Shown here: in pieces, positions 1-11,144 of the stretch | Numbering within the stretch: the first letter of the stretch is position 1 | Layout of the letters: each line of letters starts with the position of its first letter | Source of the DNA: a virus | Strand: one strand, 5' to 3' | DNA: 11,144 nt | Virus record (IMG/VR): IMGVR_UViG_3300027863_000702 | Coordinates: 1-11,144 of that record | Made by a program: the position numbers and the translations under genes | Notes under the pieces: model-generated | Told to the model about the DNA's origin: nothing | Databases searched by the model: none | Seen by the model: the letters and a program-made list of their open reading frames with translations, nothing else

Positions 1-127
1 GGATTAAAAGATGATGATTTTGTTGATGGATATGAACAGATTTAAGTTATTCGGTTTACCGAAAGTCTTAAAAAGTTCGGTTAACTGCTTTAATGCATGG
101 TTAACGAAGCAGAATTAAGAGACCGAA
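1..127. repeat. Terminal direct repeat, copy 1 (identical to 11018-11144). Circularisation overlap or terminal redundancy.
   Basis: Base-by-base comparison of 1-127 with 11018-11144 shows 127/127 identity. It contains the last 45 nt of CDS 10646-11062, a promoter, and the first 31 nt of CDS 97-483. Confidence 0.97.
50..81 (+). promoter_or_regulatory. Class-A archaeal-type BRE/TATA promoter (ACCGAAAGTCTTAAAAAG, 58-75) embedded in TTCGGT/ACCGAA/TTCGGT inverted repeats
   Basis: ACCGAAA starts 39 nt upstream of the ATG at 97. The same motif recurs at 1622, 2526 and 10343 at 38 nt from an ATG. The hexamers TTCGGT (50-55), ACCGAA (58-63) and TTCGGT (76-81) bracket the TATA element. Confidence 0.6.
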
Positions 128-483
128 AAGACGACCCTGTAGATTTCTATTGTGCTGATGGAACAGGCATAGCAAAAGGAACGCTTCTTAAATTAAGTGA
201 CGCAAGAGTTGTTTCAGCAGCGGACAGCGAAGGTTGTGTATGCGCTGGAATTGCAGCAAGGGAAAAAGTAGCTAATGATGGCAGAACAAGAATTGCAGTT
301 TATCAGCAAGGCATTTTTGACATGGTAGCAAGCGGGGCTATTGCAGTAGGATCTAAGCTTATAGCCGCAGGTACTAACAATCAAGTTAAAGCAGGGAATG
401 CTCAATCTGGAGCGGCTGTAATTGGCTACGCCTTAGAGACCGCAACAGACGGAGAAAGAATACAAGTGAGGTTAATGTTATAA
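97..483 (+). CDS. Head decoration/cement-like protein (DUF2190-like), 128 aa
   Basis: Small beta-rich protein located directly upstream of the capsid gene. Its pattern GTLLKLS...GIAAREKV..G.RIAVYQQGIFDM...AI.VGSKL...G..NQV......AVIGYALE.A.DGE.IQVRLM resembles the DUF2190 / phage head-decoration family. A leaderless-type promoter lies upstream. Confidence 0.6.
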   Translation: MVNEAELRDRKDDPVDFYCADGTGIAKGTLLKLSDARVVSAADSEGCVCAGIAAREKVANDGRTRIAVYQQGIFDMVASGAIAVGSKLIAAGTNNQVKAGNAQSGAAVIGYALETATDGERIQVRLML

Positions 484-484
484 A

Positions 485-1342
485 ATGGCATCAGGAGTAG
501 AAACCAACGAGATAAGAGGCCTTGACATAGACAAGGCGGTAAAGGGCTTCGCCTTAAGAGAATATAACTTCTTAGAGGAATGTTTAGTCTCGGCTATGTC
601 TGGAGACAGCCTAAGATGGTATCAAGAAACAGCAAGCGACTTAACTGCTACAACACCAACAGACCTTAATGTTTCACCACTCAGCAGTTTTCCATATTTG
701 GAGGTAACTTGGACAAGGCAAACGAGCTATGTCCAGAAATATGCAGCAGAAGGGTTTATTTCTTTAGAAGACGCAAAAAGCGCGGATATTGATGTAGTCA
801 CAAGAACATTACTCAGACTTACAAGAGCAGTTATTAAAAAAAGGGACATTGCAATTTATTCAGTCTTCCAAGGAGCAAGCAACAGCTTTGCCGTCACAAG
901 CATAGGCGGGGCAACATGGGACGCGGTAAGCGGACAAGACCCAATTAAAGACCTTCTACATGCACAATATCTTATTAGCAGCCAAGATTATGACGCAAGA
1001 GGAGCCTCGCTCTTACTCAATCCTTATGACTACAAAAGCTTAATAACATGGCTTATTTCCTCTAAAGGAACTTATTTCACAGGATTCAGTAGTGATACTT
1101 TGCAATCGGGAAGAGTTTTAGAAATTTTGGGCCTGAGAATAAAAGTTTCTAATAATGTAACAGCTGGAGAGGCTATTGTTATAGTTCCTCAAAGGGCAGT
1201 AACATGGAAAGAATTCACGCCTATTACTGCGAGAACTATTGAAGAAGTTGGAATAGGCTATAAAATAAGGGTATGGTGTTTGGGAGTTGCTATAATGACT
1301 GACCCTTATGCTGCATGCAGATTAACCAATCTAAAGACCTAA
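485..1342 (+). CDS. Major capsid protein, HK97-fold candidate (285 aa, no delta domain)
   Basis: The size matches a mature HK97-type MCP. It sits immediately after the decoration gene (stop 483, ATG 485, GAGGT SD upstream). A long helix-like segment DVVTRTLLRLTRAVIKKRDIAIY and a LLLNPYDYKSL segment are typical of the family. Gene order is scaffold-like, then decoration, then MCP. Confidence 0.7.
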   Translation: MASGVETNEIRGLDIDKAVKGFALREYNFLEECLVSAMSGDSLRWYQETASDLTATTPTDLNVSPLSSFPYLEVTWTRQTSYVQKYAAEGFISLEDAKSADIDVVTRTLLRLTRAVIKKRDIAIYSVFQGASNSFAVTSIGGATWDAVSGQDPIKDLLHAQYLISSQDYDARGASLLLNPYDYKSLITWLISSKGTYFTGFSSDTLQSGRVLEILGLRIKVSNNVTAGEAIVIVPQRAVTWKEFTPITARTIEEVGIGYKIRVWCLGVAIMTDPYAACRLTNLKT

Positions 1343-1343
1343 A

Positions 1344-1469
1344 ATGGTTTATGAAAAAGTGTATTTGTTTAATACAGAAATTGAAAGAGATAATTTTGAG
1401 AAAGAAGTAGAGGAAAAAGTTTTAAAAAAACCTGTAATAATAGAAAATGATGAGGGAGGTATAGTTTAA
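1344..1469 (+). CDS. Small acidic hypothetical protein, 41 aa (not in ORF track)
   Basis: Hand translation gives MVYEKVYLFNTEIERDNFEKEVEEKVLKKPVIIENDEGGIV. The start is 1 nt after the MCP stop, and its stop overlaps the next start (TAATG). It fills an otherwise empty gap in a tightly packed operon. Confidence 0.45.
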   Translation: MVYEKVYLFNTEIERDNFEKEVEEKVLKKPVIIENDEGGIV

Positions 1470-1633
1470 TGGCTGCTGGAGATGTTGAAGTGAGAATTGT
1501 AAAAGCAACGGCTGATTTAGTAGATACTGCCCTAACTCAAATGAGAGCAACAGCTGGCCCTAATGGAAAATATGGCATGGTGTCAATCCAAAACGGCCAA
1601 TATATTCTTATTTGGGCTATAACCGAAACTTAA
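1469..1633 (+). CDS. Small structural-module protein, 54 aa. Domain-less paralog of the LamG protein's N and C termini (not in ORF track).
   Basis: Hand translation gives MAAGDVEVRIVKATADLVDTALTQMRATAGPNGKYGMVSIQNGQYILIWAITET. GGAGGT SD at 1455-1460. The N-terminus MAAGDVEV matches MAVGDVQV of CDS 1660-2526, and the tail resembles that protein's C-terminus. Confidence 0.6.
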   Translation: MAAGDVEVRIVKATADLVDTALTQMRATAGPNGKYGMVSIQNGQYILIWAITET

Positions 1634-1637
1634 ATAA
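1622..1637 (+). promoter_or_regulatory. Class-A BRE/TATA promoter (ACCGAAACTTAAATAA) for the LamG gene
   Basis: ACCGAAA starts exactly 38 nt upstream of the ATG at 1660. There is no SD in between, which is consistent with a leaderless mRNA. Confidence 0.6.
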
Positions 1638-1659
1638 ACTTTGATTTTTTCTCTAATTT

Positions 1660-2526
1660 ATGGCGGTTGGAGATGTTCAAGTTCTATTTGCAGATGTAGT
1701 TACAAGAAGTAATTTTCATGACGCGATAAGCAGCAATATCTCGATTAATGACGGAATGGTATTTAACGGAACAAACAGCTACGCTTATATACCTAATTTT
1801 GATTTAAGCGACACAAAACAGATAACCTTTTCATTCTGGATTTATCCCACGGCCAGAACTCTCTGTTGCATATGTGAGCACAGCGCTAACTCAAGCGCTA
1901 ATAATGCTTTTTTCGTTAATTTTGAGTCTGGCTCGGCTGCAGATAAAGTGAAATTTGCTATAAGAGACCATGAAAGCACAACGAATTGGTATAACATTTT
2001 TAAAACCATTAAAGAGTATCCAATAAATAACTGGTACCATGTGGCCATAACTAAAGACAGAACTCAAGAAGGACGAGAACAAACAAAAATATGGGTTAAC
2101 GGAACGCAAGATTATGCCATCTATTCTAATTATTACAATACTCTTACCTCATATTTCGAAAATAATACTTTGTATATTGGAACGAGAGGTAATGTTGCTT
2201 ATTTTCTTTATGGTAGATTATGCAACTTTTTAATTTATAAAAGAATTTTAAATGAAAGAGAAATTAAAGACTTATATAACAGCGGCAGAACATCTTATGC
2301 AGTTGTTACCGACGGGCTCTATGTCGAATATTCTGGACGAGATTTCGAAGGCAGTTCATCAAGCCCGACGCTAATTTATGATACCAGAAGTATTACCCGC
2401 GCGATGTTTCAACCTAAAATAATAACACAAGTATTAAGAGAATTGCGCACCAATGCAAACACCAAATATTTAGCTGCGGAAATTAACGGAAAAATTATGT
2501 TTGCTGGAATTGAGGAAGCAGCCTAA
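1660..2526 (+). CDS. LamG / concanavalin-A-like lectin-domain protein (288 aa). Candidate host-adhesion or capsid/vertex-displayed protein.
   Basis: Segments typical of Laminin_G_3-type domains: FNGTNSYAYIP......ITFSFWIYP, WYHVAITKD, KIWVNGT, LYIGTRGN, and F.GRLCNFLIYKRILNEREIKDLYNSG. The gene has its own promoter directly after the capsid operon. Confidence 0.75.
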   Translation: MAVGDVQVLFADVVTRSNFHDAISSNISINDGMVFNGTNSYAYIPNFDLSDTKQITFSFWIYPTARTLCCICEHSANSSANNAFFVNFESGSAADKVKFAIRDHESTTNWYNIFKTIKEYPINNWYHVAITKDRTQEGREQTKIWVNGTQDYAIYSNYYNTLTSYFENNTLYIGTRGNVAYFLYGRLCNFLIYKRILNEREIKDLYNSGRTSYAVVTDGLYVEYSGRDFEGSSSSPTLIYDTRSITRAMFQPKIITQVLRELRTNANTKYLAAEINGKIMFAGIEEAA

Positions 2527-2542
2527 CCGAAAGATTTAAATA
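2526..2542 (+). promoter_or_regulatory. Class-A BRE/TATA promoter (ACCGAAAGATTTAAATA)
   Basis: ACCGAAA starts 38 nt upstream of the ATG at 2564. It overlaps the stop codon of the LamG gene. Confidence 0.6.
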
Positions 2543-2563
2543 TTAGTGTGTGCTTTATCTTCT

Positions 2564-2773
2564 ATGGAAACTCAAGTAATCAAACAAGAAAAACCTAACT
2601 CATGGGAATTTGGAAAAGCGGCGAACCGCTTTAAGATATATTTTGATACTCCAACGGACTTAAAAGAAACAATTAAAGCCTTACATAAAGAAGGGTTTTT
2701 AAAGGACTTTGATGAGCTTATGAAAGATATTGAAGTGTTATCGAAAGTAAAGGAGCGGCAAGATGAATATTAA
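2564..2773 (+). CDS. Hypothetical small protein (69 aa from ATG 2564; the ORF track starts at GTG 2546)
   Basis: Open frame with plausible protein composition. I prefer ATG 2564 because it lies at the conserved 38-nt spacing from the class-A promoter. The next gene overlaps its end. Confidence 0.6.
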   Translation: METQVIKQEKPNSWEFGKAANRFKIYFDTPTDLKETIKALHKEGFLKDFDELMKDIEVLSKVKERQDEY

Positions 2774-3131
2774 AGGAAAAATTGAGAAAATCGGAAGCAG
2801 ACAAGGAAAAACACAATTTGGTAAAAGTTATACCTTATACGAAATTTACATTAATGGAAAAAAATACACTTTCTTTAATGAGCAATTTTTAAATGGGTTA
2901 GATGTTGGGGATTATGTTGAGGTTTCTCTAGAAAAGAAGGGCCTATATAATGAAGTCCAAAATATTGTTAAAATAACCAAAGAGGAAGCTGAAAAGGCGG
3001 CGGAAAACGAACCTAAAAATAAAACAGCTTATGAAATAAACGAACTTCTCAAATTAATTTTAGCTGAGCTAAAAGAATTAAATCAAACAACAAAAACAAC
3101 ATGGGTGAAAGTGCAAGATGGCAAACCTTAA
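2763..3131 (+). CDS. Hypothetical protein, possible OB-fold nucleic-acid-binding N-domain plus helical C-tail (122 aa)
   Basis: AGGAG SD upstream. The N-terminal beta-rich pattern MNIKGKIEKIGS..G......Y.L.EI.INGKKY......GL.VGDYVEVSL.KKG.YN.V is reminiscent of OB folds. This fold guess is weak. Confidence 0.55.
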   Translation: MNIKGKIEKIGSRQGKTQFGKSYTLYEIYINGKKYTFFNEQFLNGLDVGDYVEVSLEKKGLYNEVQNIVKITKEEAEKAAENEPKNKTAYEINELLKLILAELKELNQTTKTTWVKVQDGKP

Positions 3132-3342
3132 ACAACGAACTCAAAAAATTGAATGGTTAAAGGGCGTAATAGCCGCTTTTAATGAGAAATATCCTTTAAA
3201 ACCAATGTCAAAAGATAAACTTATCGCGGAATTTTGCTTAACCTTTAACTCAACTGAAAGAACGGCTAAAGAATGTCTTAAAATATTGGCCAACACCGGC
3301 TTTATAATACTGGACAAAAAAGAGGTGCAAAAAAGATGCTGA
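3118..3342 (+). CDS. Small winged-helix-like DNA-binding protein (74 aa)
   Basis: The C-terminal pattern STERTAKECLKILANTGFIILDKKEV looks like a recognition helix followed by a beta wing. It overlaps the preceding gene by 14 nt. Confidence 0.6.
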   Translation: MANLKQRTQKIEWLKGVIAAFNEKYPLKPMSKDKLIAEFCLTFNSTERTAKECLKILANTGFIILDKKEVQKRC

Positions 3343-3515
3343 AGTATAGGCCTCTTACAATAAGGCAACTGGTGGACCTTATTTTATCGTTGGAAATACT
3401 TCATTTCTTTTTTGATGTAATTTTATGAACATTTGTGTCAATTTTTCTACAGAAGCTTATCTGCAGTTAATTTTATTATTGCTGCTTTTCTTGATTTTCT
3501 ACGAGGTGTATAAAA

Positions 3516-3692
3516 ATGTTAGAAAATGAGGAATTAGGCCTAAAGGTTGCGGAAAATGAGGAAGAGGCCTTTTGGCAAGAAATCATAGACAGCACAAAAA
3601 AAGACATTGAACGCCTTGAAAAACTTTTAAAATTCAATAAAGCGGTGTTAGAATTAGCCGAAAATAAAATAAATGCCATACAGAAAAATTAG
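3516..3692 (+). CDS. Small acidic coiled-coil protein, 58 aa (not in ORF track)
   Basis: Hand translation gives MLENEELGLKVAENEEEAFWQEIIDSTKKDIERLEKLLKFNKAVLELAENKINAIQKN. AGGTG SD lies 8 nt upstream. The listed antisense ORF 3476-3679 has S/F-rich shadow-like composition. Confidence 0.55.
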   Translation: MLENEELGLKVAENEEEAFWQEIIDSTKKDIERLEKLLKFNKAVLELAENKINAIQKN

Positions 3693-3849
3693 ACATTGCA
3701 TAAGCTGCGGTAAGCTTTTGGGCCGTTCTTCAAAAATATATTGCTCTCGTTGCCTCATGAAAAAAAACCGCTGGAAAAAGAACGATGACTTACATAAATA
3801 TTTCTCCGTCTTTGATTTCAATAAGGCCTGCTTTTTCGAATGTTTCTAA
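3673..3849 (+). CDS. Zinc-ribbon miniprotein B, 58 aa (CxxC-N10-CxxC). Paralog of 5498-5629 (not in ORF track).
   Basis: Hand translation gives MPYRKIRHCISCGKLLGRSSKIYCSRCLMKKNRWKKNDDLHKYFSVFDFNKACFFECF. It shares R..C..CGK...Y.C..C....WKKN with the other zinc-ribbon ORF. No clear SD. The last 60 nt overlap the convergent gene 3790-4002. Confidence 0.4.
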   Translation: MPYRKIRHCISCGKLLGRSSKIYCSRCLMKKNRWKKNDDLHKYFSVFDFNKACFFECF

Positions 3850-4002
3850 TTGTTCCTTGACTTCTTTTATTTTAACCCCTACATTAACCGCTATTTGGGC
3901 CGCTAAACTCTCAAAATTAGCCCTTTTATCTTCTGCCTGCTTTATGCTGTCAATTATTCGCCATATGGCCTTATTTATTCTCTCAGTTTTGCTTTGATAC
4001 AT
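3790..4002 (-). CDS. Small winged-helix-like DNA-binding protein (70 aa)
   Basis: Helical N-part, then LAAQIAVNVGVKIKEVKEQLETFEKAGLIEIKDGEI, which looks like a wHTH recognition helix plus wing. It is coupled to the upstream RHH gene (2-nt gap) with a GGAGG SD. Confidence 0.6.
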   Translation of the reverse strand: MYQSKTERINKAIWRIIDSIKQAEDKRANFESLAAQIAVNVGVKIKEVKEQLETFEKAGLIEIKDGEIFM

Positions 4003-4004
4003 CT

Positions 4005-4421
4005 TTATTCACCTCCTTTCATCTTTTGGTATTCTTTAAAGGCATTAAGAACTTGTTCATAAGTTATGTTGTATTTGAAATAGAGGTTTTTGTATCGGTT
4101 TAGCAAGCTTTGTTCGGTTAATGAAGGAAAAGAGCGAAAATCCTCTAAAATTTCATTTGGTAAGTCTCTAAATACTTCTCTCATTTGTTCTTTTTTCTTT
4201 TTAATTATTTCAAGCGCTTCTAAGGTCTGTTTTAACTCCAATTCTTTCTCAGCTATTTCTTTTTTCAAAGTTATTACATTCTGCTCCAAATCTTTCTCTT
4301 TTAAATCATCTCCAGACAAAAAGAAGTTTTTCAATAATTTTTCAATTAAAGCTGATGTATTGGTTTCTTTTAATTTGTTTATTAATTGTTCATCTAAATA
4401 GATAGTTGTTATTTTTTTCAT
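4005..4421 (-). CDS. Ribbon-helix-helix (CopG/Arc/MetJ-like) transcriptional regulator with long coiled-coil C-domain (138 aa)
   Basis: The N-terminus KKITTIYLDEQLINKLKETNTSALIEKLLKNFF fits a beta-strand/helix/helix RHH pattern. It is the first gene of the only minus-strand operon and diverges from the non-coding control region. Confidence 0.65.
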   Translation of the reverse strand: MKKITTIYLDEQLINKLKETNTSALIEKLLKNFFLSGDDLKEKDLEQNVITLKKEIAEKELELKQTLEALEIIKKKKEQMREVFRDLPNEILEDFRSFPSLTEQSLLNRYKNLYFKYNITYEQVLNAFKEYQKMKGGE

Positions 4422-4444
4422 GTCTAAATAAGTGTGTGTGTTTG

Positions 4445-4459
4445 TATTTATAAATATTT
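4445..4459 (-). promoter_or_regulatory. Class-B TATA promoter for the minus-strand RHH operon (minus strand reads AAATATTTATAAATACAAACACACAC...ATG)
   Basis: TTTATAAATA ends 23 nt upstream of the ATG at 4421, with no SD. It shares TATAAATACA followed by a CA/CG alternating tract with the promoter at 5135. Confidence 0.55.
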
Positions 4460-4476
4460 CTATTTTCTATTATATA

Positions 4477-4617
4477 TTTTTTTTATTTTTTTTTATTTTT
4501 TTATTTTTTTAGGCTATTTTATTTTTACAAAAAATTATTTATTTAATAAATAAATAAATAGGATTTTGATTAATGTTAATTCCTTAAAAAAAATAAAAAA
4601 AGAAAAAATAAAAAAAA
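4477..4617. repeat. A/T-tract inverted repeat around a 23-nt palindrome. Putative replication origin / DNA-unwinding element.
   Basis: T8-A-T9-A-T7-A-T7 (4477-4510) is mirrored by A8-T-A7-G-A6-T-A8 (4586-4617). The perfect palindrome TTATTTATTTA-A-TAAATAAATAA (4535-4557) lies between them. No ORF is present. Confidence 0.5.
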
Positions 4618-4675
4618 TTTCCCTTTCTGAGAACCCTTAATTTGCGCATTATTTTTTTTGTTTTTGGGTATTAAC

Positions 4676-4736
4676 GCGCCTCGCAGGCCACTTTATCCGG
4701 CATATCTAAAGATATGCCTGTGGCCATGCTCGGCGC
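4676..4736. other. 61-nt composite GC-rich hairpin (hairpin 0)
   Basis: Pairings: GCGCC (4676-4680) with GGCGC (4732-4736); GCA with TGC; GGCCAC (4686-4691) with GTGGCC (4720-4725); GGCATATCT (4699-4707) with AGATATGCC (4710-4718). Confidence 0.6.
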
Positions 4737-4828
4737 TAATAAGCCTTATAAAGCCCATATATGAGGTTTTTAGGCTTTTTGGCTTTTTTGAATTTTATGA
4801 TTTTTTTGGATGGTTTTTAGGGGGACTT

Positions 4829-4883
4829 AGGCTTTTTGCGAAAAAAGAGGGGGTTAGGGGGTGAATTTTTTCGCAAAAAGCCT
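4829..4883. other. Hairpin 1: perfect 18-bp AT-rich stem with 19-nt loop GAGGGGGTTAGGGGGTGAA
   Basis: AGGCTTTTTGCGAAAAAA (4829-4846) is the exact reverse complement of TTTTTTCGCAAAAAGCCT (4866-4883). The loop at 4847-4865 is identical to the loop of hairpin 3. Confidence 0.85.
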
Positions 4884-4928
4884 TTATAAGCCGTAAAAAT
4901 GCAATATAAGGGGGTTTTGGTATGTTAC

Positions 4929-4979
4929 GCCAAAGCCCCGGAATAACAAAGGGGGTTTAAAGATGTCCGGGGCTTTGGC
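4929..4979. other. Hairpin 2: perfect 14-bp stem with 23-nt loop containing AAGGGGGTTT
   Basis: GCCAAAGCCCCGGA (4929-4942) is the exact reverse complement of TCCGGGGCTTTGGC (4966-4979). The loop is ATAACAAAGGGGGTTTAAAGATG. Confidence 0.85.
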
Positions 4980-4984
4980 AATAA

Positions 4985-5025
4985 CCCCGGCGCAAGAGGG
5001 GGTTAGGGGGTGAATTGCGCCGGGG
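4985..5025. other. Hairpin 3: perfect 11-bp GC-rich stem with the same 19-nt loop GAGGGGGTTAGGGGGTGAA
   Basis: CCCCGGCGCAA (4985-4995) is the exact reverse complement of TTGCGCCGGGG (5015-5025). The loop is at 4996-5014. Confidence 0.85.
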
Positions 5026-5040
5026 GCTATTTTGGCCTAA

Positions 5041-5098
5041 AAGGAGCGGAGCGAAGCGGAGCGACGAAGCAAGGGGGGGAAGGAAAGGATAGGGGGGT
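5041..5098 (+). repeat. Purine-rich block with a tandem 10-mer AGCGGAGCGA x2 (5045-5064), a G7 tract (5073-5079) and a G6 tract (5092-5097)
   Basis: Read directly: AAGGAGCGGAGCGAAGCGGAGCGACGAAGCAAGGGGGGGAAGGAAAGGATAGGGGGG. Apart from its C residues, the + strand contains only a single pyrimidine (one T). Confidence 0.8.
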
Positions 5099-5134
5099 CC
5101 TCACGGACAAATTTTTTAAAAATAAAAACAAAAA

Positions 5135-5150
5135 GTATAAATACACGCAC
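5135..5150 (+). promoter_or_regulatory. Class-B TATA promoter (GTATAAATACACGCAC) for the HNH-terminase-portal operon
   Basis: TATAAATA ends 29 nt upstream of the ATG at 5173. It shares TATAAATACA plus an alternating CA/CG tract with the divergent promoter at 4445. The spacing is slightly longer than in class A, implying a short leader. Confidence 0.45.
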
Positions 5151-5172
5151 ATATTAAATAAATAAACCAAAA

Positions 5173-5526
5173 ATGAAAGAAAAAAGAGACGACATAACAC
5201 CAGATTACAGAATTAGACGAGAATTAAGAATGCTGTGGCTAAAATCACGAGAAAGAAGCGCAGCATTAAAAAGAGCTAAATATTGCTGTGAAATCTGCGG
5301 CGTTAAAAGAAGCGAAGCAAAAGGAAAAGAACAACCTATAGAAGTACATCATAAAGAAGGAATTGAAAATTGGGACAAAGTGATAAAAACAATAAGAGAA
5401 GAGATATTATGCGAACCAGAGAAGTTAATTTGCGTATGCCCAAGATGTCATCAAAAACTTCATAACAAAAAGCTAACTTATGAGGACTTAATAAAAAATG
5501 AAGGCAATAAGGAACAGGTTTTGTAA
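5173..5526 (+). CDS. HNH endonuclease (117 aa), packaging-associated
   Basis: CCEICG ... IEVHHKEG ... CVCPRCHQKLHN gives two CxxC pairs flanking the HH / H..LH beta-beta-alpha-metal core. It lies directly upstream of the large terminase, as in cos-type HK97-like phages. Confidence 0.85.
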   Translation: MKEKRDDITPDYRIRRELRMLWLKSRERSAALKRAKYCCEICGVKRSEAKGKEQPIEVHHKEGIENWDKVIKTIREEILCEPEKLICVCPRCHQKLHNKKLTYEDLIKNEGNKEQVL

Positions 5527-5629
5527 AAGATGCGGTAAAATATTCCAAGCAAGAACAAAATATAGCTATATATGCCCTAATTGCCAAAAACCAAGAGGTT
5601 ATACAGCGTGGAAAAAAAATAAAAAATGA
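5498..5629 (+). CDS. Zinc-ribbon miniprotein A, 43 aa (CxxC-N12-CxxC), between HNH and TerL. Possible DNA-recognition (small-terminase-like) factor (not in ORF track).
   Basis: Hand translation, verified codon by codon: MKAIRNRFCKRCGKIFQARTKYSYICPNCQKPRGYTAWKKNKK. GAGGA lies upstream. The start overlaps the HNH 3' end by 29 nt. The stop TGA overlaps the TerL ATG (ATGA at 5626-5629). Confidence 0.6.
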   Translation: MKAIRNRFCKRCGKIFQARTKYSYICPNCQKPRGYTAWKKNKK

Positions 5630-6906
5630 TTGGGAACATTAAACTTGATGATTGGCAAGAAAAAATTGTTAATTTAGGATTAACAGGCAATAAAAACATA
5701 GCAATAAGAGCAGGGCGGCAGGTTGGAAAATCAACAGCCATAGCGGTTTTAGCTGGAGAATTTGCGGTTAAAAACGAAGATAAGGTTATAATGATTATTT
5801 CAGCTGTAGAGAGGCAAGCCTTTTTGCTTTTTGAGAAGGTTTTAGAGTTTATTGACGATAGATATAGCCAGATGGTTACATGGGGAAAGAATAAGCCGAC
5901 CAAAAGCCAGCTAACCTTAAAAAACGGCTCAAGAATATATTGTTTGCCGACAGGATTAGACGGCTACGGAATAAGAGGCTATACAATAGACCTTCTTATA
6001 GCTGATGAAGCAGCGTATATAAACGATGATGTTTTTAATGCCATAACGCCTTCTTTAGCAGCCAGAAAAAACGCGAAAATTGTTCTTTTATCAACGCCGT
6101 TCGGCAGAGAGGGCTATTTTGCAAGAGCATTTAACGACCCAACTTTTGAAACATTTCACATAACAAGCGAAGAATGCAGCAGAATTAACAAGGAATTTTT
6201 AGAGCAAGAAAAAAAGAGAATGACGAAAAGGCAATATATGCAGGAATATTTAGGAGAGTTTATAGATGAATTATTGCAGTGGTTTCCAGATCAGCTTATA
6301 AAAGAATGCATGAAACGAAAGCGACCAGAAAAAATAAACAAAAATGAAAATTACTTTTTAGGGGTTGATTTGGCCAGAATGGGCAAAGATGAGACAACCT
6401 TCGAAATTGGATTTTTAGCAGAAAATAAGAGAATAATCCAAGTTGAGAACCTTATAACGAGGAGGACAAGATTAAACGAAAGCGCAAAAATGATTTTAGA
6501 GCTTGATAAGATTTATAACTTTAGGAAAATATACATAGATGATGAAGGAATAGGAGTTGGAGTTTATGATTTCCTTTTGGAAAATGAACAAGTTAGAAGA
6601 AAGTTAACAGCCATTAATAATTCTAAACGTGTTTTGGACTTGGAGGGAACATCAAGAGTTAAAATCTTGAAAGAGGACCTATATAATAATCTTTTAAGGC
6701 TTATGGAAACAGGACAAATAGAACTTTTAGATGACCCTGAAATATTTCAAAGCCTGAAAAGCGTTCAATATGACTATACAACGGACAGCTTAGGGAGAAG
6801 TCACCTTAAGATATTTGGTAATTACACACACATCGCAGAAGGGCTTATAAGATTGGGTTGGTGTATTAAAGAAAAAGGTTTAAATATTTGGGTTAAGTCA
6901 ATATAG
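5626..6906 (+). CDS. terL: Terminase large subunit (426 aa)
   Basis: Walker A is AGRQVGKST. Walker B is IDLLIADEAAY. The coupling motif is LLSTPFG. The C-terminal RNase-H-like nuclease shows acidic motifs FLGVDLARMGKDETT and IYIDDEGIGVG. Confidence 0.9.
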   Translation: MIGNIKLDDWQEKIVNLGLTGNKNIAIRAGRQVGKSTAIAVLAGEFAVKNEDKVIMIISAVERQAFLLFEKVLEFIDDRYSQMVTWGKNKPTKSQLTLKNGSRIYCLPTGLDGYGIRGYTIDLLIADEAAYINDDVFNAITPSLAARKNAKIVLLSTPFGREGYFARAFNDPTFETFHITSEECSRINKEFLEQEKKRMTKRQYMQEYLGEFIDELLQWFPDQLIKECMKRKRPEKINKNENYFLGVDLARMGKDETTFEIGFLAENKRIIQVENLITRRTRLNESAKMILELDKIYNFRKIYIDDEGIGVGVYDFLLENEQVRRKLTAINNSKRVLDLEGTSRVKILKEDLYNNLLRLMETGQIELLDDPEIFQSLKSVQYDYTTDSLGRSHLKIFGNYTHIAEGLIRLGWCIKEKGLNIWVKSI

Positions 6907-6907
6907 T

Positions 6908-7270
6908 ATGACTGAAACCTTATGCGACAGCGGAGCAGTTAAGATAAAAGCAGGAGCAAATGCCGCAACATTAACCGCTGCGCAATACACGGACATCATA
7001 AACAGGGCTGAAGGCTTTGTATGTGCAGCCGCAAGATACGACTTTATAACAAATTACAGCAATATATCCACTATAGGGAAGAATTTTTTAAAAGACGTTA
7101 CGAGCTCTAAAGCGGCCATAGAGGTTATAAATTATGACATGTCAGGCTTTACATCACGAACTGAGGCGCAGGTTATGCTTGATGTTAATTACAATATATT
7201 AGTTGACGGAATAAACTTATTAAGAGACGAGAAATTTAGAAGCTTTATAATAAGCGGAGAGGTGGCATAA
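6908..7270 (+). CDS. Hypothetical structural protein (120 aa), possibly a gp6-like head-tail adaptor/connector
   Basis: The start is 1 nt after the TerL stop and the stop overlaps the next ATG (TAATG). The size and the AQYTDIINRAEGFV...Y segment are loosely reminiscent of head-tail connector proteins. The functional call is weak. Confidence 0.5.
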   Translation: MTETLCDSGAVKIKAGANAATLTAAQYTDIINRAEGFVCAAARYDFITNYSNISTIGKNFLKDVTSSKAAIEVINYDMSGFTSRTEAQVMLDVNYNILVDGINLLRDEKFRSFIISGEVA

Positions 7271-7920
7271 TGGCTGATTTGATGAAAAAAAAGAGCTTTT
7301 TAAGAAGCGGAGAAGGCGCAATAGCGAGCTATAACTATGAAGACATAGCTTCAGGCAGCGGAGTTATTGTTTTTTACGCTTTAGAAGCGAGTACATCAAC
7401 AAACGGCTCAAACGAGCAAGCAAAATATTTTTTAACAACTGAGAGAATTAAATCTAAAGACTATTACACGCAGTATACAATACCGGGCGGAAATTGGTGT
7501 AAATTTTGCGAATTTTCATTTGATAGTTTGCCTTTTAATACAAAAAGAATTTTAAACGGAAGGTGTTATTTTTCGCCATTGTTCAAAATTGATACCAATG
7601 AGTTAAGTGTTTATGCAACTATTACTCTTATAAAATATTCTAATTCAACAGAGGAAATTTTAGGAAGTGTTCAAAGCGGAGTAATAGCAGGGGGGGGCAA
7701 GTATAAAAGGCCTACAACTTATTTAGACATTTCAAATGTAGTTTTTAAAAAAGGGGATCTATTAAGAATAAAATTTGAAGGGTATGGCCACTATGGTGGC
7801 GGGTCGGCTTCTGCATGGTTTTATTATGATGGATACGGCAGAGGATTACCGGCAGATATAGAAGGAAACACAGAAACAGCAGACAGCATATTTTACATAC
7901 CTTTTAAAATAGATGTATAA
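7270..7920 (+). CDS. Beta-rich hypothetical virion protein (216 aa). Candidate vertex/tail-stub or receptor-binding protein.
   Basis: GAGGTGG SD. Aromatic/Gly-rich beta-type composition with no recognisable family. It sits between TerL and portal and contains a G8 homopolymer at 7690-7697. Confidence 0.55.
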   Translation: MADLMKKKSFLRSGEGAIASYNYEDIASGSGVIVFYALEASTSTNGSNEQAKYFLTTERIKSKDYYTQYTIPGGNWCKFCEFSFDSLPFNTKRILNGRCYFSPLFKIDTNELSVYATITLIKYSNSTEEILGSVQSGVIAGGGKYKRPTTYLDISNVVFKKGDLLRIKFEGYGHYGGGSASAWFYYDGYGRGLPADIEGNTETADSIFYIPFKIDV

Positions 7921-7926
7921 AACAAA

Positions 7927-9012
7927 ATGACAGAATTAGATGTAACAAAAGCAAGCGCAACAAACATTTATAGCGGAAGCGATTGGAATATTGAGGAATA
8001 CGAGACAGAGGCGCAGAGTTTAGAGCATGGCGAAGCCGACGAGGTCGTTGTAACATTCCCTAAGGCAGCCGAATATTTTGGGTATTATAAAAAGTATGGC
8101 CAGTTAAAGAAGGCTATTGACACACTCTGGTTGTATGTTGTGGGAAAAGGTTATGAAGTAGACCCTGAAACTAAAGTGATTTTAGAGCATATAACTGGAT
8201 TTGGGGAGGACACTTTTGTATCGATTTTGTGGAATATGGGGGTGGTGTCAATGATACAGGGCGACGCCTTCGCTGAAATTGTGAGAGATGACAAAACAGG
8301 AAAACTCATAAATTTAAAGCCTATAAGTCCAGAAAGAATGAGAATAATTTATGGCTCTAACGGACTTATAAAAAGATATGAGCAGGTTACCAAAGACAAA
8401 ATAATAAAATGGAACAAAGAAGAAATATTTCACATAAGAAACGACGCAATAGCTGATGAACAAAGAGGAACTTCAGTTATTGAAAGCTGTAAATGGGTTA
8501 TTGACGCCATAGAGGAAGCAAGGAGAGATTATAGGATAGTTCTACATAGAAACGTCGTACCTTTGAGAATTATTGAGATTGATACGGACGACACGGCAAA
8601 AAGAAATAGCTTGATGCAGGAATACAAAGATGCCATACAAAAAGGTGAGGTTTTAGTTATTCCAAAGGGAACCGTTCAAGTAACAGAAACGGCAATAAAT
8701 GTTCAAGACCCTTTAGGTTGGATACAGAGTTTAGAGAATTACTTTTATTTGGCTGTAGGCATACCGAAAACAATAGCCAACCCTGAAGGAGTAAGCGAGG
8801 GAACCTCTAAAATAGGTTATCTGATTTTTGAGCCAATTTATAGCTTCAGGCAGACTTTAATGGAAGCTGATATTTGGAACCAGCTTTATTTCAGGATTAA
8901 ATTCAACAGGCCGGCCTCTTTAGTGGACAACATAACAACTAATGAGGCAAAAAATACCAGTCAATTAGGCTTCCAACCTAAGGACCTATATGTAAATTTA
9001 AACAGGGAGTAA
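7927..9012 (+). CDS. Portal protein (361 aa)
   Basis: The size and position are in the packaging operon. The segment GEDTFVSILWNMGVVSMIQGDAFAEIVRDDKTGKLINLKPISPERMRIIYGSNGLIKRYEQ resembles the conserved N-terminal region of HK97/SPP1-type portals. An acidic-rich central helix region follows. Confidence 0.75.
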   Translation: MTELDVTKASATNIYSGSDWNIEEYETEAQSLEHGEADEVVVTFPKAAEYFGYYKKYGQLKKAIDTLWLYVVGKGYEVDPETKVILEHITGFGEDTFVSILWNMGVVSMIQGDAFAEIVRDDKTGKLINLKPISPERMRIIYGSNGLIKRYEQVTKDKIIKWNKEEIFHIRNDAIADEQRGTSVIESCKWVIDAIEEARRDYRIVLHRNVVPLRIIEIDTDDTAKRNSLMQEYKDAIQKGEVLVIPKGTVQVTETAINVQDPLGWIQSLENYFYLAVGIPKTIANPEGVSEGTSKIGYLIFEPIYSFRQTLMEADIWNQLYFRIKFNRPASLVDNITTNEAKNTSQLGFQPKDLYVNLNRE

Positions 9013-9016
9013 AAAA

Positions 9017-10159
9017 ATGGCTTTATCAAAAAAGAAAAAACAAACAACCGCAACAGACCAACAGCAACAGCCTCAGCAGCAACCGCAAATAGCCTTTATA
9101 GGTAAAGAAATGCCAGCGTGGCAAAAGGCGCAGCAACAGCAACAGCAGCCACAACAGCCGCAAGCAGTTATAGGCGCAGGCCAGCCTGCAAACCTGCAAC
9201 AATTAAGCGAACTTTATAGCAATTACTTAAATCAACAGAAAGAACAGCAAAAACCAAAATATCTACAAAAAGGCGGTTATGTTGACAGCTCAACAGGAGA
9301 ATATATTCCACCTAAAAATATAACAAAAGTGAAGTTTAACGATGACGGAACAATAGATTACACGCCAAAAGGGACTGATGAAACAATTAGGTTGACAAAA
9401 GAGGAATACGGGGCATTAATTGGAGATAAAGGAGAAACAAAAACAACCGACAAAGTCTTAAAAATTAAATATCTTGAAAGCCCAGAATATCAGCAAGATT
9501 TGCTAAACCAACAACAGCAACAGGAGAAGGAAAGATATTTAAATGCCCTAAAAAGCCAGCAACAAATAAAACCTGAAATGCTTGATTTGTTGGCTGCAGA
9601 GAAAGGATTAGAGTTAAAAGACAATGTTGTTCAAAAGGTCACTTCTGTAGGCGCAGGTATAGGCGGAGCCATGGCGGGCGCTAAAACAGGGGCAACTATT
9701 GGGTCTGTTATAGGGCCAGAGGGGGCAGCTGTTGGGGGGGTTATAGGTGGTGTTGTTGGTGGTGTCGCAGGCTTTATTGTAAAGACGGGATTTGACCAAA
9801 GACAAAACACCAAAAATTCCTTTAAAGTTTATTCAGCCGCAAAACAAAACCAAAATTTCATATTATCTCAGGTGAGACAAGGGACAATCTCACCAGAACA
9901 AGCTCAGCAATTATGGGACGAACAGAAAATTAACCTTCTTATTGCAGAGAGAAATTTAAAGAAGTTAACTCAAACAGACTTAGACAAATTTTTATCTAAT
10001 GCAGGCGACGAGCTTATAACAATAGAAACCTACATGCAAAGACAGCCTTATATGGACGATATCTTTGCGCAAGAATTAGCAGGCATTCCAGCTAAAAACC
10101 CAAATAATATTTACCCAGAACTAAATTATGTAGATTTAGACGACTATGAGCCAGAATAA
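9017..10159 (+). CDS. Poly-Q / glycine-zipper protein (380 aa). Candidate internal virion, ejection or membrane-inserting protein.
   Basis: GGGAG SD. There are three Q-rich tracts (QQQQPQQQPQ, QQQQQQPQQPQ, QQQQQE). A roughly 50-aa GxxxG-rich hydrophobic segment reads VGAGIGGAMAGAKTGATIGSVIGPEGAAVGGVIGGVVGGVAGFIV. The C-terminus is helical. Confidence 0.7.
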   Translation: MALSKKKKQTTATDQQQQPQQQPQIAFIGKEMPAWQKAQQQQQQPQQPQAVIGAGQPANLQQLSELYSNYLNQQKEQQKPKYLQKGGYVDSSTGEYIPPKNITKVKFNDDGTIDYTPKGTDETIRLTKEEYGALIGDKGETKTTDKVLKIKYLESPEYQQDLLNQQQQQEKERYLNALKSQQQIKPEMLDLLAAEKGLELKDNVVQKVTSVGAGIGGAMAGAKTGATIGSVIGPEGAAVGGVIGGVVGGVAGFIVKTGFDQRQNTKNSFKVYSAAKQNQNFILSQVRQGTISPEQAQQLWDEQKINLLIAERNLKKLTQTDLDKFLSNAGDELITIETYMQRQPYMDDIFAQELAGIPAKNPNNIYPELNYVDLDDYEPE

Positions 10160-10388
10160 AGATTTACACTTTTTATTGATTGTTTTGAGAAATAGCCTCA
10201 TATTAGGCGGTTTATATTTTGTTTCTGTTTTTGCGACGATGGAACTCTCTTATGAAACCTGCAAGCCAGTAATTATTTTTATTTTATCTTACATCTTCAC
10301 AGAATTAGCCAGACATTATAAGTTAAGCCTCAGGACAACAGAACCGAAAGATATAAAAAGACACACAACCTTATTTTACTATGGCTGA
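10146..10388 (+). CDS. Small membrane protein with two predicted TM helices (80 aa), possibly holin-like
   Basis: Hydrophobic stretches LHFLLIVLRNSLILGGLYFVSVFA and PVIIFILSYIFTELA are followed by a basic C-tail. It overlaps the preceding gene by 14 nt. Confidence 0.5.
   Translation: MSQNKDLHFLLIVLRNSLILGGLYFVSVFATMELSYETCKPVIIFILSYIFTELARHYKLSLRTTEPKDIKRHTTLFYYG
10343..10359 (+). promoter_or_regulatory. Class-A BRE/TATA promoter (ACCGAAAGATATAAAAA), internal to the 3' end of CDS 10146-10388
   Basis: ACCGAAA starts exactly 38 nt upstream of the ATG at 10381. It is followed by ACACACA, like the other promoters. Confidence 0.55.
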
Positions 10389-10645: not shown

Positions 10646-11062
10646 ATGGAGTTATATGTTATTGCCGGCGGACAGATGGATAGCCTTAACCGATGGCAAC
10701 AAGACTTAAATTCTGTTTTTTTGCCCATTTATAAAAACGGAAAAAAGGTAAAATATGAGGAAGGTGGATTAACGCATAGGCGGTTATTGGTTGCTCCTGT
10801 TCAGCTGTTCAAAATATGCTTCCCTAAAGAAGAGCTTGAAAATGTGATGTCTATGGTTTGCCCGACGGATTATATAGAAAAAAAATATAGTGTAATAAGA
10901 AAAAGCATAATGTTTTTAAGGAAAATTTTGCGCCTAAAAAAAGCTCCAGAACCTAAATATTTAAATCCTTTTCTACAGCCTAATCAAGTAGATAAAGCTG
11001 TTTTTGTTGTACCTATAGGATTAAAAGATGATGATTTTGTTGATGGATATGAACAGATTTAA
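10646..11062 (+). CDS. Hypothetical protein (138 aa), head-module position. The last 45 nt are duplicated at 1-45.
   Basis: The open frame starts 1 nt after the previous stop. I recognise no family. Confidence 0.55.
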   Translation: MELYVIAGGQMDSLNRWQQDLNSVFLPIYKNGKKVKYEEGGLTHRRLLVAPVQLFKICFPKEELENVMSMVCPTDYIEKKYSVIRKSIMFLRKILRLKKAPEPKYLNPFLQPNQVDKAVFVVPIGLKDDDFVDGYEQI

Positions 11063-11144
11063 GTTATTCGGTTTACCGAAAGTCTTAAAAAGTTCGGTTA
11101 ACTGCTTTAATGCATGGTTAACGAAGCAGAATTAAGAGACCGAA
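11018..11144. repeat. Terminal direct repeat, copy 2 (identical to 1-127)
   Basis: Same as copy 1. The repeat begins inside CDS 10646-11062 and ends 31 nt into a second copy of the 97-483 gene. Confidence 0.97.

Follow-up and report, generated by a model that had tools for sequence, protein, structure and literature searches.

Probable archaeal-type BRE/TATA promoters with leaderless mRNAs in a minimal HK97-type virus from an uncultured family

Four copies of the heptamer ACCGAAA in this virus genome, each followed by an A/T-rich box and, at a nearly constant distance, by the start codon of a gene, raise the question of what kind of promoter they form and in what kind of host it would be read. 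The window, by which we mean the whole stretch of 11,144 nt that was analysed, is a complete, circularly permuted genome; positions 1-127 are identical to 11018-11144, and the unit genome is a circle of 11,017 bp. The gene content includes an HK97-type major capsid protein, a portal and a large terminase, and no tail, replication or integrase genes are recognisable in the 11,017 bp. To our knowledge, the genomes of the smallest isolated tailed phages, at 11.6 kb, are larger than this one. The virus is a member of a large uncultured family with genomes of 11-12.7 kb; the family is apparently undescribed, and the promoter biology itself is already known.

All four copies that the preliminary description had placed 38-39 nt before ATGs are present, on the + strand, at 58, 1622, 2526 and 10343. 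The first putative promoter (ACCGAAAGTCTTAAAAAG, 58..75) consists of the BRE ACCGAAAG and the TATA-like box CTTAAAAA (67-74) and heads the cement/major-capsid operon, with ATG 97 lying 39 nt from the A of ACCGAAA; the spacing is 38 nt in the other three. The second (ACCGAAACTTAAATAA, 1622..1637), with the BRE ACCGAAA and the TATA box CTTAAATA (1629-1636), serves a LamG-domain gene that begins at ATG 1660, an earlier start being excluded by an in-frame TAA at 1654-1656. The third (ACCGAAAGATTTAAATA, 2526..2542) joins the BRE ACCGAAAGA to the box TTTAAATA (2535-2542) and serves a block of 69-aa, 122-aa and 74-aa genes from ATG 2564, while the fourth (ACCGAAAGATATAAAAA, 10343..10359) has the same BRE, ACCGAAAGA, with the box TATAAAAA (10352-10359) and serves 87-aa and 138-aa genes from ATG 10381. 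The genes are not parted by clean intergenic gaps, and the promoters overlap the genes upstream of them: the BRE at 2526 begins on the final base of the LamG gene stop codon, the TATA box at 1629-1636 includes the stop codon of an upstream 54-aa ORF, and the promoter at 10343 sits within the 3' end of an 80-aa ORF (10146-10388).

The heptamer occurs seven times on the + strand of the window and not at all on the - strand, against an expectation of 1.17 +/- 1.08, and seven copies were reached in none of 200 shuffles. Since positions 1-127 are repeated at 11018-11144, the copy at 11075 is that at 58, and two of the six unique copies, at 122 and 8763, fall within ORFs and have no TATA box. The combination ACCGAAA-N31-32-ATG was observed four times; in 500 dinucleotide-preserving shuffles it averaged 0.05 occurrences and never exceeded 1.

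We consider it highly probable that the four motifs are archaeal-type BRE/TATA core promoters that give rise to leaderless mRNAs, a reading already offered in the preliminary description and supported here by the geometry of the sites, their coupling to ATGs in relatives and the lower frequency of Shine-Dalgarno sites at genes with such a box. With the ATG as a proxy for the transcription start, the four 8-bp A/T boxes are centred 25.5-27.5 nt upstream of it, and ACCGAAA(G) ends 1-3 nt 5' of the box at every site; the family profile reads T/T/T/A/W/A/W/A at -29 to -22. The window thereby resembles archaeal core promoters in having a purine-rich BRE that adjoins an 8-bp A/T box on its 5' side, a box centre about 26-27 nt before the presumed start, and a pyrimidine at -1 and purine at +1 of that presumed start. 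Promoters of Methanocaldococcus jannaschii have a 9-nt BRE beside an 8-nt box, together with an Inr and a PPE, and prefer A, C, C and G at -40 to -37, ahead of the box TWTATATA (PMC2699501); in haloarchaea most transcripts are leaderless, the BRE reads CGAAA and the centre of the TATA box falls at -27/-28 (PMC2151090). The extended A-C-C-G of the former, followed by AAA, is found in the window, as is the core CGAAA of the latter (Halobacterium/Haloferax). The window box, TTTAWAWA (mostly TTTAAATA), differs from the TWTATATA of M. jannaschii, and the spacing to the presumed start is 1-2 nt shorter than the commonest spacing there. The latter point counts against the reading, as the commonest M. 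jannaschii spacing (ACCG at -40 to -37, box end at -24) would put the start 0-2 nt inside the ATG; either the host spacing is about 1-2 nt shorter, or the box register differs.

In such promoters the TATA-binding protein (TBP) of the host would bind the A/T octamer (consensus TTTAWAWA), transcription factor B (TFB) would read the adjoining upstream purine-rich BRE, here in the extended form ACCGAAA, and archaeal RNA polymerase would start about 24-27 nt past the box, at a position that coincides with the A of the ATG or differs from it by no more than 1-2 nt. A transcript of this kind would have essentially no 5' leader, so that its first gene would be translated without a Shine-Dalgarno site, and the genes downstream on each transcript would be translated via Shine-Dalgarno pairing or stop-start coupling. 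Binding of TBP and TFB, the exact start site and an archaeal host are what we infer from the DNA sequence.

A promoter matrix was trained on relatives only, anchored on the ATG and with eight A/T bases at -29 to -22 as its sole requirement; it recovers C(-36), G(-35) and AAA(-34 to -32), none of which was imposed. Scanning the window with this matrix gave six matches of at least 12 bits, compared with 0.39 expected, and all six point to a gene start at an offset of 0 to +8. The promoter at 2526..2542 has the top score of the window (16.8 bits), followed by those at 10343..10359 (15.0 bits) and 1622..1637 (12.3 bits), all with offset 0. The promoter at 58..75 is the lowest of the seven discussed here, at 9.3 bits; cement-gene orthologues in relatives have TTTAAATA at a distance equal to that of its box, and in about 20 relatives the promoter of the cement gene retains TTTAAATA at -29 to -22.

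The matrix adds to the four sites three candidate promoters that lack CCG, before ATGs 6908, 5173 and, on the - strand, 4421. The first of these (6868..6886, +; 14.7 bits, offset 0) pairs an A-rich BRE, AAAGAAAAAGG, with the box TTTAAATA (6879-6886), 21 nt before ATG 6908; it sits within the 3' end of the terminase gene and heads an operon of 120-aa, 216-aa and portal genes, and in two relatives (L003 and L004) CGAAAAGTTTAAATA is found 37 nt before the orthologous 121-aa gene. The candidate at 5127..5144 (+; 14.4 bits, offset +8) comprises AACAAAAAG and TATAAATA (5137-5144) and precedes the HNH/terminase operon at a start that has no Shine-Dalgarno site; ATG 5173 lies 8 nt past the leaderless position, and a short leader is therefore expected. 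The third candidate, GAAAATAGAAATA with TTTATAAATA at 4445..4467 (-; 14.1 bits, offset +4), serves 138-aa and 70-aa regulator-like genes. At least seven BRE/TATA promoters would, on these predictions, divide the 11,017-bp circle of this minimal HK97-type virus into compact transcription units.

The linkage of motif and start codon that the preliminary description had made a test of its reading is also found in relatives, as an ATG peak at 36 nt. Among 94 distinct CGAAA+TATA sites from about 100 related genomes, whose promoters are not statistically independent, the ATG lies exactly 36 nt from the C in 32 and at 35-37 nt in 45, over a background of 0-5 per position, and 41 of these 45 ATGs open ORFs of at least 40 aa. 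At the BRE position relatives have degenerate A-rich variants (GAAAAG, AGAAAGA, ACGAAAG) whose distance to the TATA box is fixed; no conservation was found in the sequence between box and ATG in relatives, and the genes that follow are of different families. In 75 unrelated, non-family low-GC mobile-element contigs, among them many with genes for archaeal XerA-like integrases, the ATG is exactly 36 nt away at 9 of 34 sites and never at 35 or 37 nt. As the peak recurs in unrelated elements, the motif behaves as a basal host signal.

Leaderless mRNAs in which internal operon genes are led by Shine-Dalgarno sites are known in haloarchaea and Sulfolobales (PMC2151090, PMC3986360). The window, as far as its sequence reveals, is similar: first genes follow their promoters at a fixed distance and have no Shine-Dalgarno site (0/4 of the motif-led genes, as claimed earlier), and 7-9 nt before many internal genes there is a GGAGGTG-type site. 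Those named in the preliminary description were confirmed at 1454..1460 (GGGAGGT, 8 nt before ATG 1469), 2751-2755 (AGGAG), 7257 (GAGAGGTGG) and 9005-9009 (GGGAG), and further internal genes have GAGGTG at 3503-3508 (+) and AGGAGGTGA at 4017-4009 (-). Several internal genes are also without a site (1344, 6908, 7927 and 10646). A departure from archaeal leaderless operons is that two of the seven window promoters (5127 and 4445 on the - strand) imply leaders of about 4-8 nt. Family-wide, G is enriched at -14 to -8 of internal genes, and Shine-Dalgarno-like motifs precede 14.5% of genes with TATA at the promoter position, compared with 30% of other genes; box and Shine-Dalgarno site thus tend to avoid each other (odds ratio 0.40, p = 2e-8). 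A pyrimidine occupies -1 in 67% of TATA-positioned genes of the family and in 23% of its other genes, and in the window the base before the start codon is C or T at all four sites and likewise at 6908.

Because these promoter signals look archaeal, the window virus and its many uncultured relatives probably have archaeal rather than bacterial hosts, possibly of the DPANN lineage. Relatives fall in six GTDB bins: three are archaeal, two of these Nanoarchaeia/Woesearchaeota, and three bacterial (Bacteroides, Anaerolineales and Levyibacteriota). The latter are contigs of 5-10 kb, for which binning is unreliable, and the Levyibacteriota-binned contig has the same promoter pattern. One relative encodes an ERCC4 nuclease with its best match to archaeal Hef/XPF models, and integrases of elements that share both the palindrome described below and the promoter match archaeal XerA best (NF040815; PDB 4A8E); both matches are below the curated NCBIfam cut-offs and indicate affinity, not membership. 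Neither a spacer match nor a provirus was found for the element. In GenBank no close relatives exist for the capsid protein or the portal; the terminase matches best that of Halogranum tailed virus 1 (HGTV-1; 31% identity over 92% of the length, 1e-50, the second-best match being at 2e-33), and all capsid and terminase matches other than one archaeal virus are bacteriophages. HGTV-1 likewise has an HK97-type major capsid protein, portal and large terminase, but its genome is 144 kb, compared with 11.0 kb for the window.

The first promoter overlaps a second element. An imperfect copy of a palindrome, GTTATTCGGTTTACCGAAAGTC, lies at 46..67 (conserved form AGTTATTCGG-N4-CCGAATAACT); the ACCGAA at 58 forms the right arm, so that the heptamer there may owe its sequence partly to another function, and a further half-site, TTCGGTTAAC, is found at 76-85. 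The palindrome is family-wide, with perfect copies in 32 family contigs of IMG/VR, two copies in many of the virus genomes, and distances to the cement ATG in three classes of about 20-24, 48-50 and 57-59 nt; in three relatives (L024, L025 and L029) it is 13 nt upstream of a separate BRE/TATA. Perfect palindromes in elements outside the family adjoin XerA-like integrase genes, the site lying 120-200 nt upstream of them; such a gene stands beside the palindrome at 28 non-family loci and at 0/172 family loci. The integrases of the 28 palindrome-bearing non-family contigs are related to six that were tested, and all six match an archaeal XerA model best. From this association the palindrome looks like a dif/att-type site, a new point, and is probably separate in function from the promoter. 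Archaeal dif has an 11-6-11 organisation with nearly identical arms (PMC2958812), and the architecture AGTTATTCG / GTATAC / CGAATAACT fits the two inverted arms and spacer that a tyrosine recombinase binds in dif. The likeness to Xer/dif sites, which concerns the palindrome only, lies in near-perfect inverted arms of 9-11 bp around a centre of 4-6 bp. Two differences are that many family virus genomes carry two copies and that the centre is itself palindromic (GTATAC, GTTAAC) and so would have no polarity. No recombination junction or product and no chromosomal dif copy was observed for the palindrome.

The palindrome invites the explanation that ACCGAA(A) is primarily the half-site of a protein that recognises it, such as a Xer-like recombinase or a dimeric regulator, rather than a BRE, and that the four copies mark regulated or recombinogenic sites which lie near A/T-rich starts by chance. 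The shared arm at site 58, the half-site at 76-85, the three discrete distances of a family-wide palindrome from the cement ATG and the presence of all seven ACCGAAA copies on one strand fit this proposal, which we nevertheless regard as unlikely: the sites at 1622, 2526 and 10343 have no second arm and only ACCGAA in common with the palindrome, the A-rich variants of relatives at a fixed TATA distance are those expected of a BRE, palindrome and BRE/TATA are separate in the three relatives mentioned, and the promoters without CCG (6868, 5127 and 4445 on the - strand) show equal geometry. A purely compositional origin might be suspected in a genome of about 64% A+T with short intergenic regions, in which A/T octamers are common and T-runs and A-runs frequent throughout, but chance is effectively refuted by the shuffle test and by the ATG peak at exactly 36 nt, seen independently in the relatives and in the unrelated contigs.

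A bacterial promoter, in a CPR or other host, would require the A/T box to act as a -10 element ahead of a leader of about 15 nt that has no Shine-Dalgarno site, or else ACCGAAA to serve as an odd -35 element. The three bacterial bins, of which one is assigned to CPR and comes from a 0.1-um groundwater fraction, and the predominance of bacteriophages among the capsid and terminase matches are in its favour, yet it appears very improbable. Sigma-70 promoters have a -35 TTGACA and a -10 TATAAT 16-18 nt apart, and for a bacterial leaderless mRNA the -10 element must fall at -12 to -7 from the ATG. The box TTTAWAWA is without the A(-11)/T(-7) pattern of the -10 hexamer, there is no conservation 17 nt upstream of the box (about -50 from the ATG), and in 415 candidate first genes the information content of positions -12 to -7 is 0.01-0.07 bits. 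We counted 24 sigma-70-like sites where 33.8 +/- 6.9 were expected, none of them before the four genes, and hairpin-plus-T terminators are not enriched (9 vs 7.7 expected). With a leadered mRNA, moreover, there is no reason why the spacing to the ATG should be exactly 36 nt, and co-occurring elements that have this motif carry genes for archaeal-type XerA-like integrases.

With archaeal-type promoters as the preferred reading, a wider picture can be sketched tentatively, one that is possible as a whole but that we would not call probable: the window may represent a globally distributed, apparently undescribed family of minimal archaeal HK97-type viruses, without a replication protein, integrase or recognisable tail, transcribed entirely from host-type BRE/TATA promoters, and with one or two dif-like palindromes, of a kind also found in integrase-encoding mobile elements, acted on by a XerA-type recombinase in trans. 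If this is true, the viruses would obtain that recombinase from the host or from a co-resident element and could use it to resolve dimers, to integrate, or to exchange the two site-delimited genome halves.

The four copies of an ACCGAAA element with a TATA-like box (at 58, 1622, 2526 and 10343) that the preliminary description had placed 38-39 nt before the ATGs at 97, 1660, 2564 and 10381 lie exactly at those coordinates, and the gap between (A/C)CGAAA and box is 1-3 nt in the window. ACCGAAA occurs seven times (six unique copies), on the plus strand only, against 1.17 expected, while ACCGAAA-N31-32-ATG occurs four times against 0.05 expected and at most once in 500 dinucleotide-preserving shuffles. 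None of the four motif-led genes is preceded by a Shine-Dalgarno site, and such sites are indeed present at internal genes (1469, 2763, 3516, 4002 on the minus strand, 7270 and 9017), both as originally claimed. The promoters of the window do not sit in free intergenic DNA but within the 3′ ends of the genes upstream.

About 100 related loci of the large uncultured virus family to which the window belongs (the family) were searched for CGAAA with a TATA-like box without the use of gene starts. An ATG lies exactly 36 nt after the C, equivalent to 38 nt from the A of ACCGAAA, in 32 of 94 distinct sites, and at 35-37 nt in 45 of the 94; 41 of these 45 ATGs begin ORFs of 40 aa or more, and any other distance has 0-5 sites. 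This peak links the motif to start codons in the relatives, against the alternative of random positions. The sequence between box and ATG is not conserved, and the genes that follow differ, including the cement gene, a 120-aa post-terminase gene and many small ORFs on both strands. When anchored on the ATG, candidate first genes display C at -36, G at -35, AAA at -34 to -32 and TTTAWAWA at -29 to -22, with neither -12 to -7 nor the region near -50 conserved; G enrichment at -14 to -8 marks the internal genes of the family instead. Among genes with a TATA box so placed, 14.5% have a Shine-Dalgarno-like motif, compared with 30% of other genes (p = 2e-8); the -1 base is a pyrimidine in 67% and 23%, respectively. 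The same spacing is found in 75 low-GC mobile-element contigs without family genes, where an ATG lies exactly 36 nt away in 9 of 34 CGAAA+TATA sites and none lies at 35 or 37; the promoter architecture is therefore common to unrelated elements and not the private motif of one family, which is what a basal promoter predicts.

A promoter matrix trained on the relatives only and then scanned on the window returned six matches of at least 12 bits, against 0.39 expected, each aimed at a gene start. The scan of the relatives themselves is partly circular, as the training set was anchored on ATGs, and was for this reason set aside in favor of the 36-nt peaks and the window scan. Three of the six matches are the sites at 2526, 10343 and 1622, while the site at 58 scores 9.3 bits. 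The new promoter candidates, which lack CCG, lie at 6868-6886 (plus strand; ATG at 6908), inside the 3′ end of the terminase gene and at a position where the related loci L003 and L004 also carry a promoter; at 5127-5144 (plus strand; ATG at 5173), with a leader of ~8 nt; and at 4445-4467 (minus strand; ATG at 4421), with a leader of ~4 nt. Alternating purine-pyrimidine tracts directly follow the TATA box in four of seven window promoters (GTGTGTG at 2543-2552, ACACACA at 10361-10368, ACACACACAC at 4432-4444 on the minus strand and CACGCACA at 5145-5152).

Bacterial explanations were weighed against this pattern. Conventional expression from sigma-70 promoters with intrinsic terminators was rejected, as sigma-70-like sites number 24 in the window against 33.8 expected, with none before the four genes, and hairpin-plus-T terminators are not enriched; oligo-T termination signals are uninformative in a genome where T-runs are so frequent. 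A bacterial leaderless promoter needs its -10 element at -12 to -7, where none is present, and a leadered bacterial mRNA leaves the exact promoter-to-ATG distance unexplained. Motif, spacing and relatives together support archaeal BRE/TATA promoters with leaderless mRNAs, as first proposed, from which we infer the transcription starts and the binding of the basal factors. Such promoters, like leaderless translation, are textbook biology for archaea, and the motif itself is not new; the window supplies a new instance of both.

Published archaeal promoters provide a close comparison. In Methanocaldococcus jannaschii an 8-nt TWTATATA box is immediately preceded by a BRE of nine positions, and A, C, C and G are over-represented at -40 to -37 (PMC2699501); the haloarchaeal BRE consensus is CGAAA, with a box centered at -27/-28 and mostly leaderless transcripts (PMC2151090). 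The ACCGAAAGA-TTTAAATA of the window matches these consensus sequences almost letter for letter. Application of the most common M. jannaschii spacing would place the start 0-2 nt inside the ATG, and the spacing in the host must be slightly shorter, or the box register shifted; only 34% of M. jannaschii starts have that most common spacing (PMC2699501).

Positions 1-127 of the window are identical to 11018-11144, a 127-nt assembly overlap, so the window represents a complete genome of 11,017 bp in circularly permuted form. To our knowledge the smallest isolated tailed phages have genomes of 11.6 kb, above this size. The genes include those for the cement/decoration protein (97-483) and the major capsid protein, which is of HK97 type (485-1342), along with a protein with a LamG domain (1660-2526), an HNH endonuclease (5173-5526), the large terminase (5626-6906), the portal (7927-9012) and a 380-aa glycine-zipper protein (9017-10159) resembling tape-measure and internal virion proteins. 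The last combines a glutamine-rich N-terminal half with a glycine-zipper membrane segment, has matches to the equivalent regions in families of tape-measure, tail-lysin and internal virion proteins, and could serve as an ejection protein here, where tail genes are otherwise missing. No replication protein, integrase or recognizable tail gene was found in the window, which also has no Rfam match at E <= 1. No tRNA genes were found in the window, 36 relatives or 15 palindrome contigs, and tRNAs consequently offer no att-site or host clue. The starts of a 54-aa ORF (1466-1491) and of the LamG gene (1657-1682) have a common 26-nt repeat of 85% identity encoding MA(A/V)GDV(E/Q)V, beyond which similarity between the two proteins is not significant (E = 0.45). 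A 750-nt non-coding region (4422-5172) separates the divergent regulator operon from the HNH/terminase operon and may be an origin and/or packaging site; its features are an extreme T-run/A-run inverted repeat (4476-4618), the 23-nt G-rich repeat AAGAGGGGGTTAGGGGGTGAATT in two identical copies (4845 and 4994), further G5 strings and a hairpin with a 14-bp stem (4929-4978; z = -2.9).

GTTATTCGGTTTACCGAAAGTC (46-67), whose right arm is the ACCGAA of the site at 58, is an imperfect version of a family-conserved palindrome, AGTTATTCGG-N4-CCGAATAACT, and is followed in the window by a further half-site (76-85); relatives have the palindrome at, for example, L030:2672, L086:1838 and L024:3593 and 9540. 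One copy lies at the cement promoter, after the stop codon of the gene upstream, and its distance to the cement ATG is ~20-24, 48-50 or 57-59 nt. Many family genomes have another copy, usually a perfect one, upstream of the terminase gene, in most cases ~130-380 nt from the start of that gene, and the two copies divide the circle into roughly equal halves. Thirty-two of the 34 IMG/VR contigs with the perfect palindrome belong to the family; a match in the larger contig L102, inside an ORF, looks like chance. As an RNA hairpin the window's copy folds no better than shuffles (z = -0.85), whereas perfect copies in relatives do (z = -3.8), with no T-run after them. Gene-cluster co-occurrence across 41 near-complete genomes gave no convincing candidate for a palindrome-binding protein (best p = 0.007, uncorrected). 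Ends of family contigs fall within 100 nt of the palindrome in 10 cases against 3.4 expected, and the window's own ends lie ~45 nt from it; recombination or heterogeneous junctions could account for this excess, as could an assembly artefact.

Among the first 120 palindrome matches in JGI metagenomes, 78 are without family genes. In the low-GC non-family contigs the palindrome is intergenic, typically with a tyrosine recombinase gene 120-200 nt downstream and a P-loop/SF3-helicase-like gene alongside. The recombinases are archaeal XerA-like integrases (palindrome upstream in L104, L134, L140, L145, L154, L211 and L244): the archaeal XerA model NF040815 was the best match for all six tested, and Pyrococcus abyssi XerA (4A8E) the best PDB match of the one searched. 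Integrases of this type occur in 28 non-family loci, with no homologue in 172 family loci; Pfam Phage_integrase gave one match among 105 family accessory-cluster representatives, which was not located by motif searches or among large ORFs. The palindrome is sometimes in tandem (L215, L233 and L244), and a GTGTGTGTGT tract similar to those at window promoters lies beside it in L145 and L149. Its architecture resembles archaeal dif, an 11-6-11 arrangement with nearly identical arms (PMC2958812). Our best guess from these sequence comparisons is a dif/att-like site with the recombinase supplied in trans; an operator or an origin is a possible alternative. The integrase-bearing elements probably share hosts with the family. 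This dif-like palindrome common to integrase-bearing elements is a side discovery, and its overlap with the site at 58, tying the family to those elements, provides a separate, testable lead.

The capsid protein has 344 homologues, all on contigs of at most 12.8 kb and many of 11-12.7 kb, and at least 196 related contigs are present in IMG/VR; a 21-kb contig (L094) was rejected as a provirus, its size being ~1.8 copies of a 12-kb genome. No close relative was found among GenBank phage records, where the capsid protein matches only Arthrobacter phages (24%) and the portal has no match. For the terminase, the haloarchaeal virus HGTV-1 ranks first in GenBank (31% identity, 1e-50), with Meiothermus and Thermus phages well behind (2e-33). 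An ERCC4-domain nuclease of 153 aa (L084:8739-9200, minus strand), encoded by a relative with a capsid identity of ~40%, has archaeal Hef and XPF as its best matches in NCBIfam, each below the curated cut-off. MAG bins containing relatives, all as short contigs, are mixed (Thaumarchaeota, Woesearchaeota, Nanoarchaeia, Bacteroides, Anaerolineales and Levyibacteriota). Given a rough estimate that archaea make up only a few percent of GTDB species, three archaeal bins out of six would amount to enrichment, though not to proof. No specific description of an ~11-kb DPANN or archaeal HK97 virus family was found in the literature; one preprint surveys metagenomic HK97 genomes of up to 20 kb, with hosts not assigned.

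Taken together, the sequence evidence favors archaea as the probable hosts of this family, whose HK97-type viruses are unusually small, with the host lineage inferred. The promoter model, (A/C)CGAAA, 2-3 nt, TTTAWAWA and an ATG 36 nt after the C, can serve to annotate starts and operons across the family, and the motif gives a probable domain-level host assignment, read from DNA alone, for a large uncultured group that MAG binning scatters over both bacteria and archaea. Should the family prove archaeal, its members would be by far the smallest HK97-type viruses known from archaea, and a compact model of the minimal needs of a capsid-portal-terminase virus.
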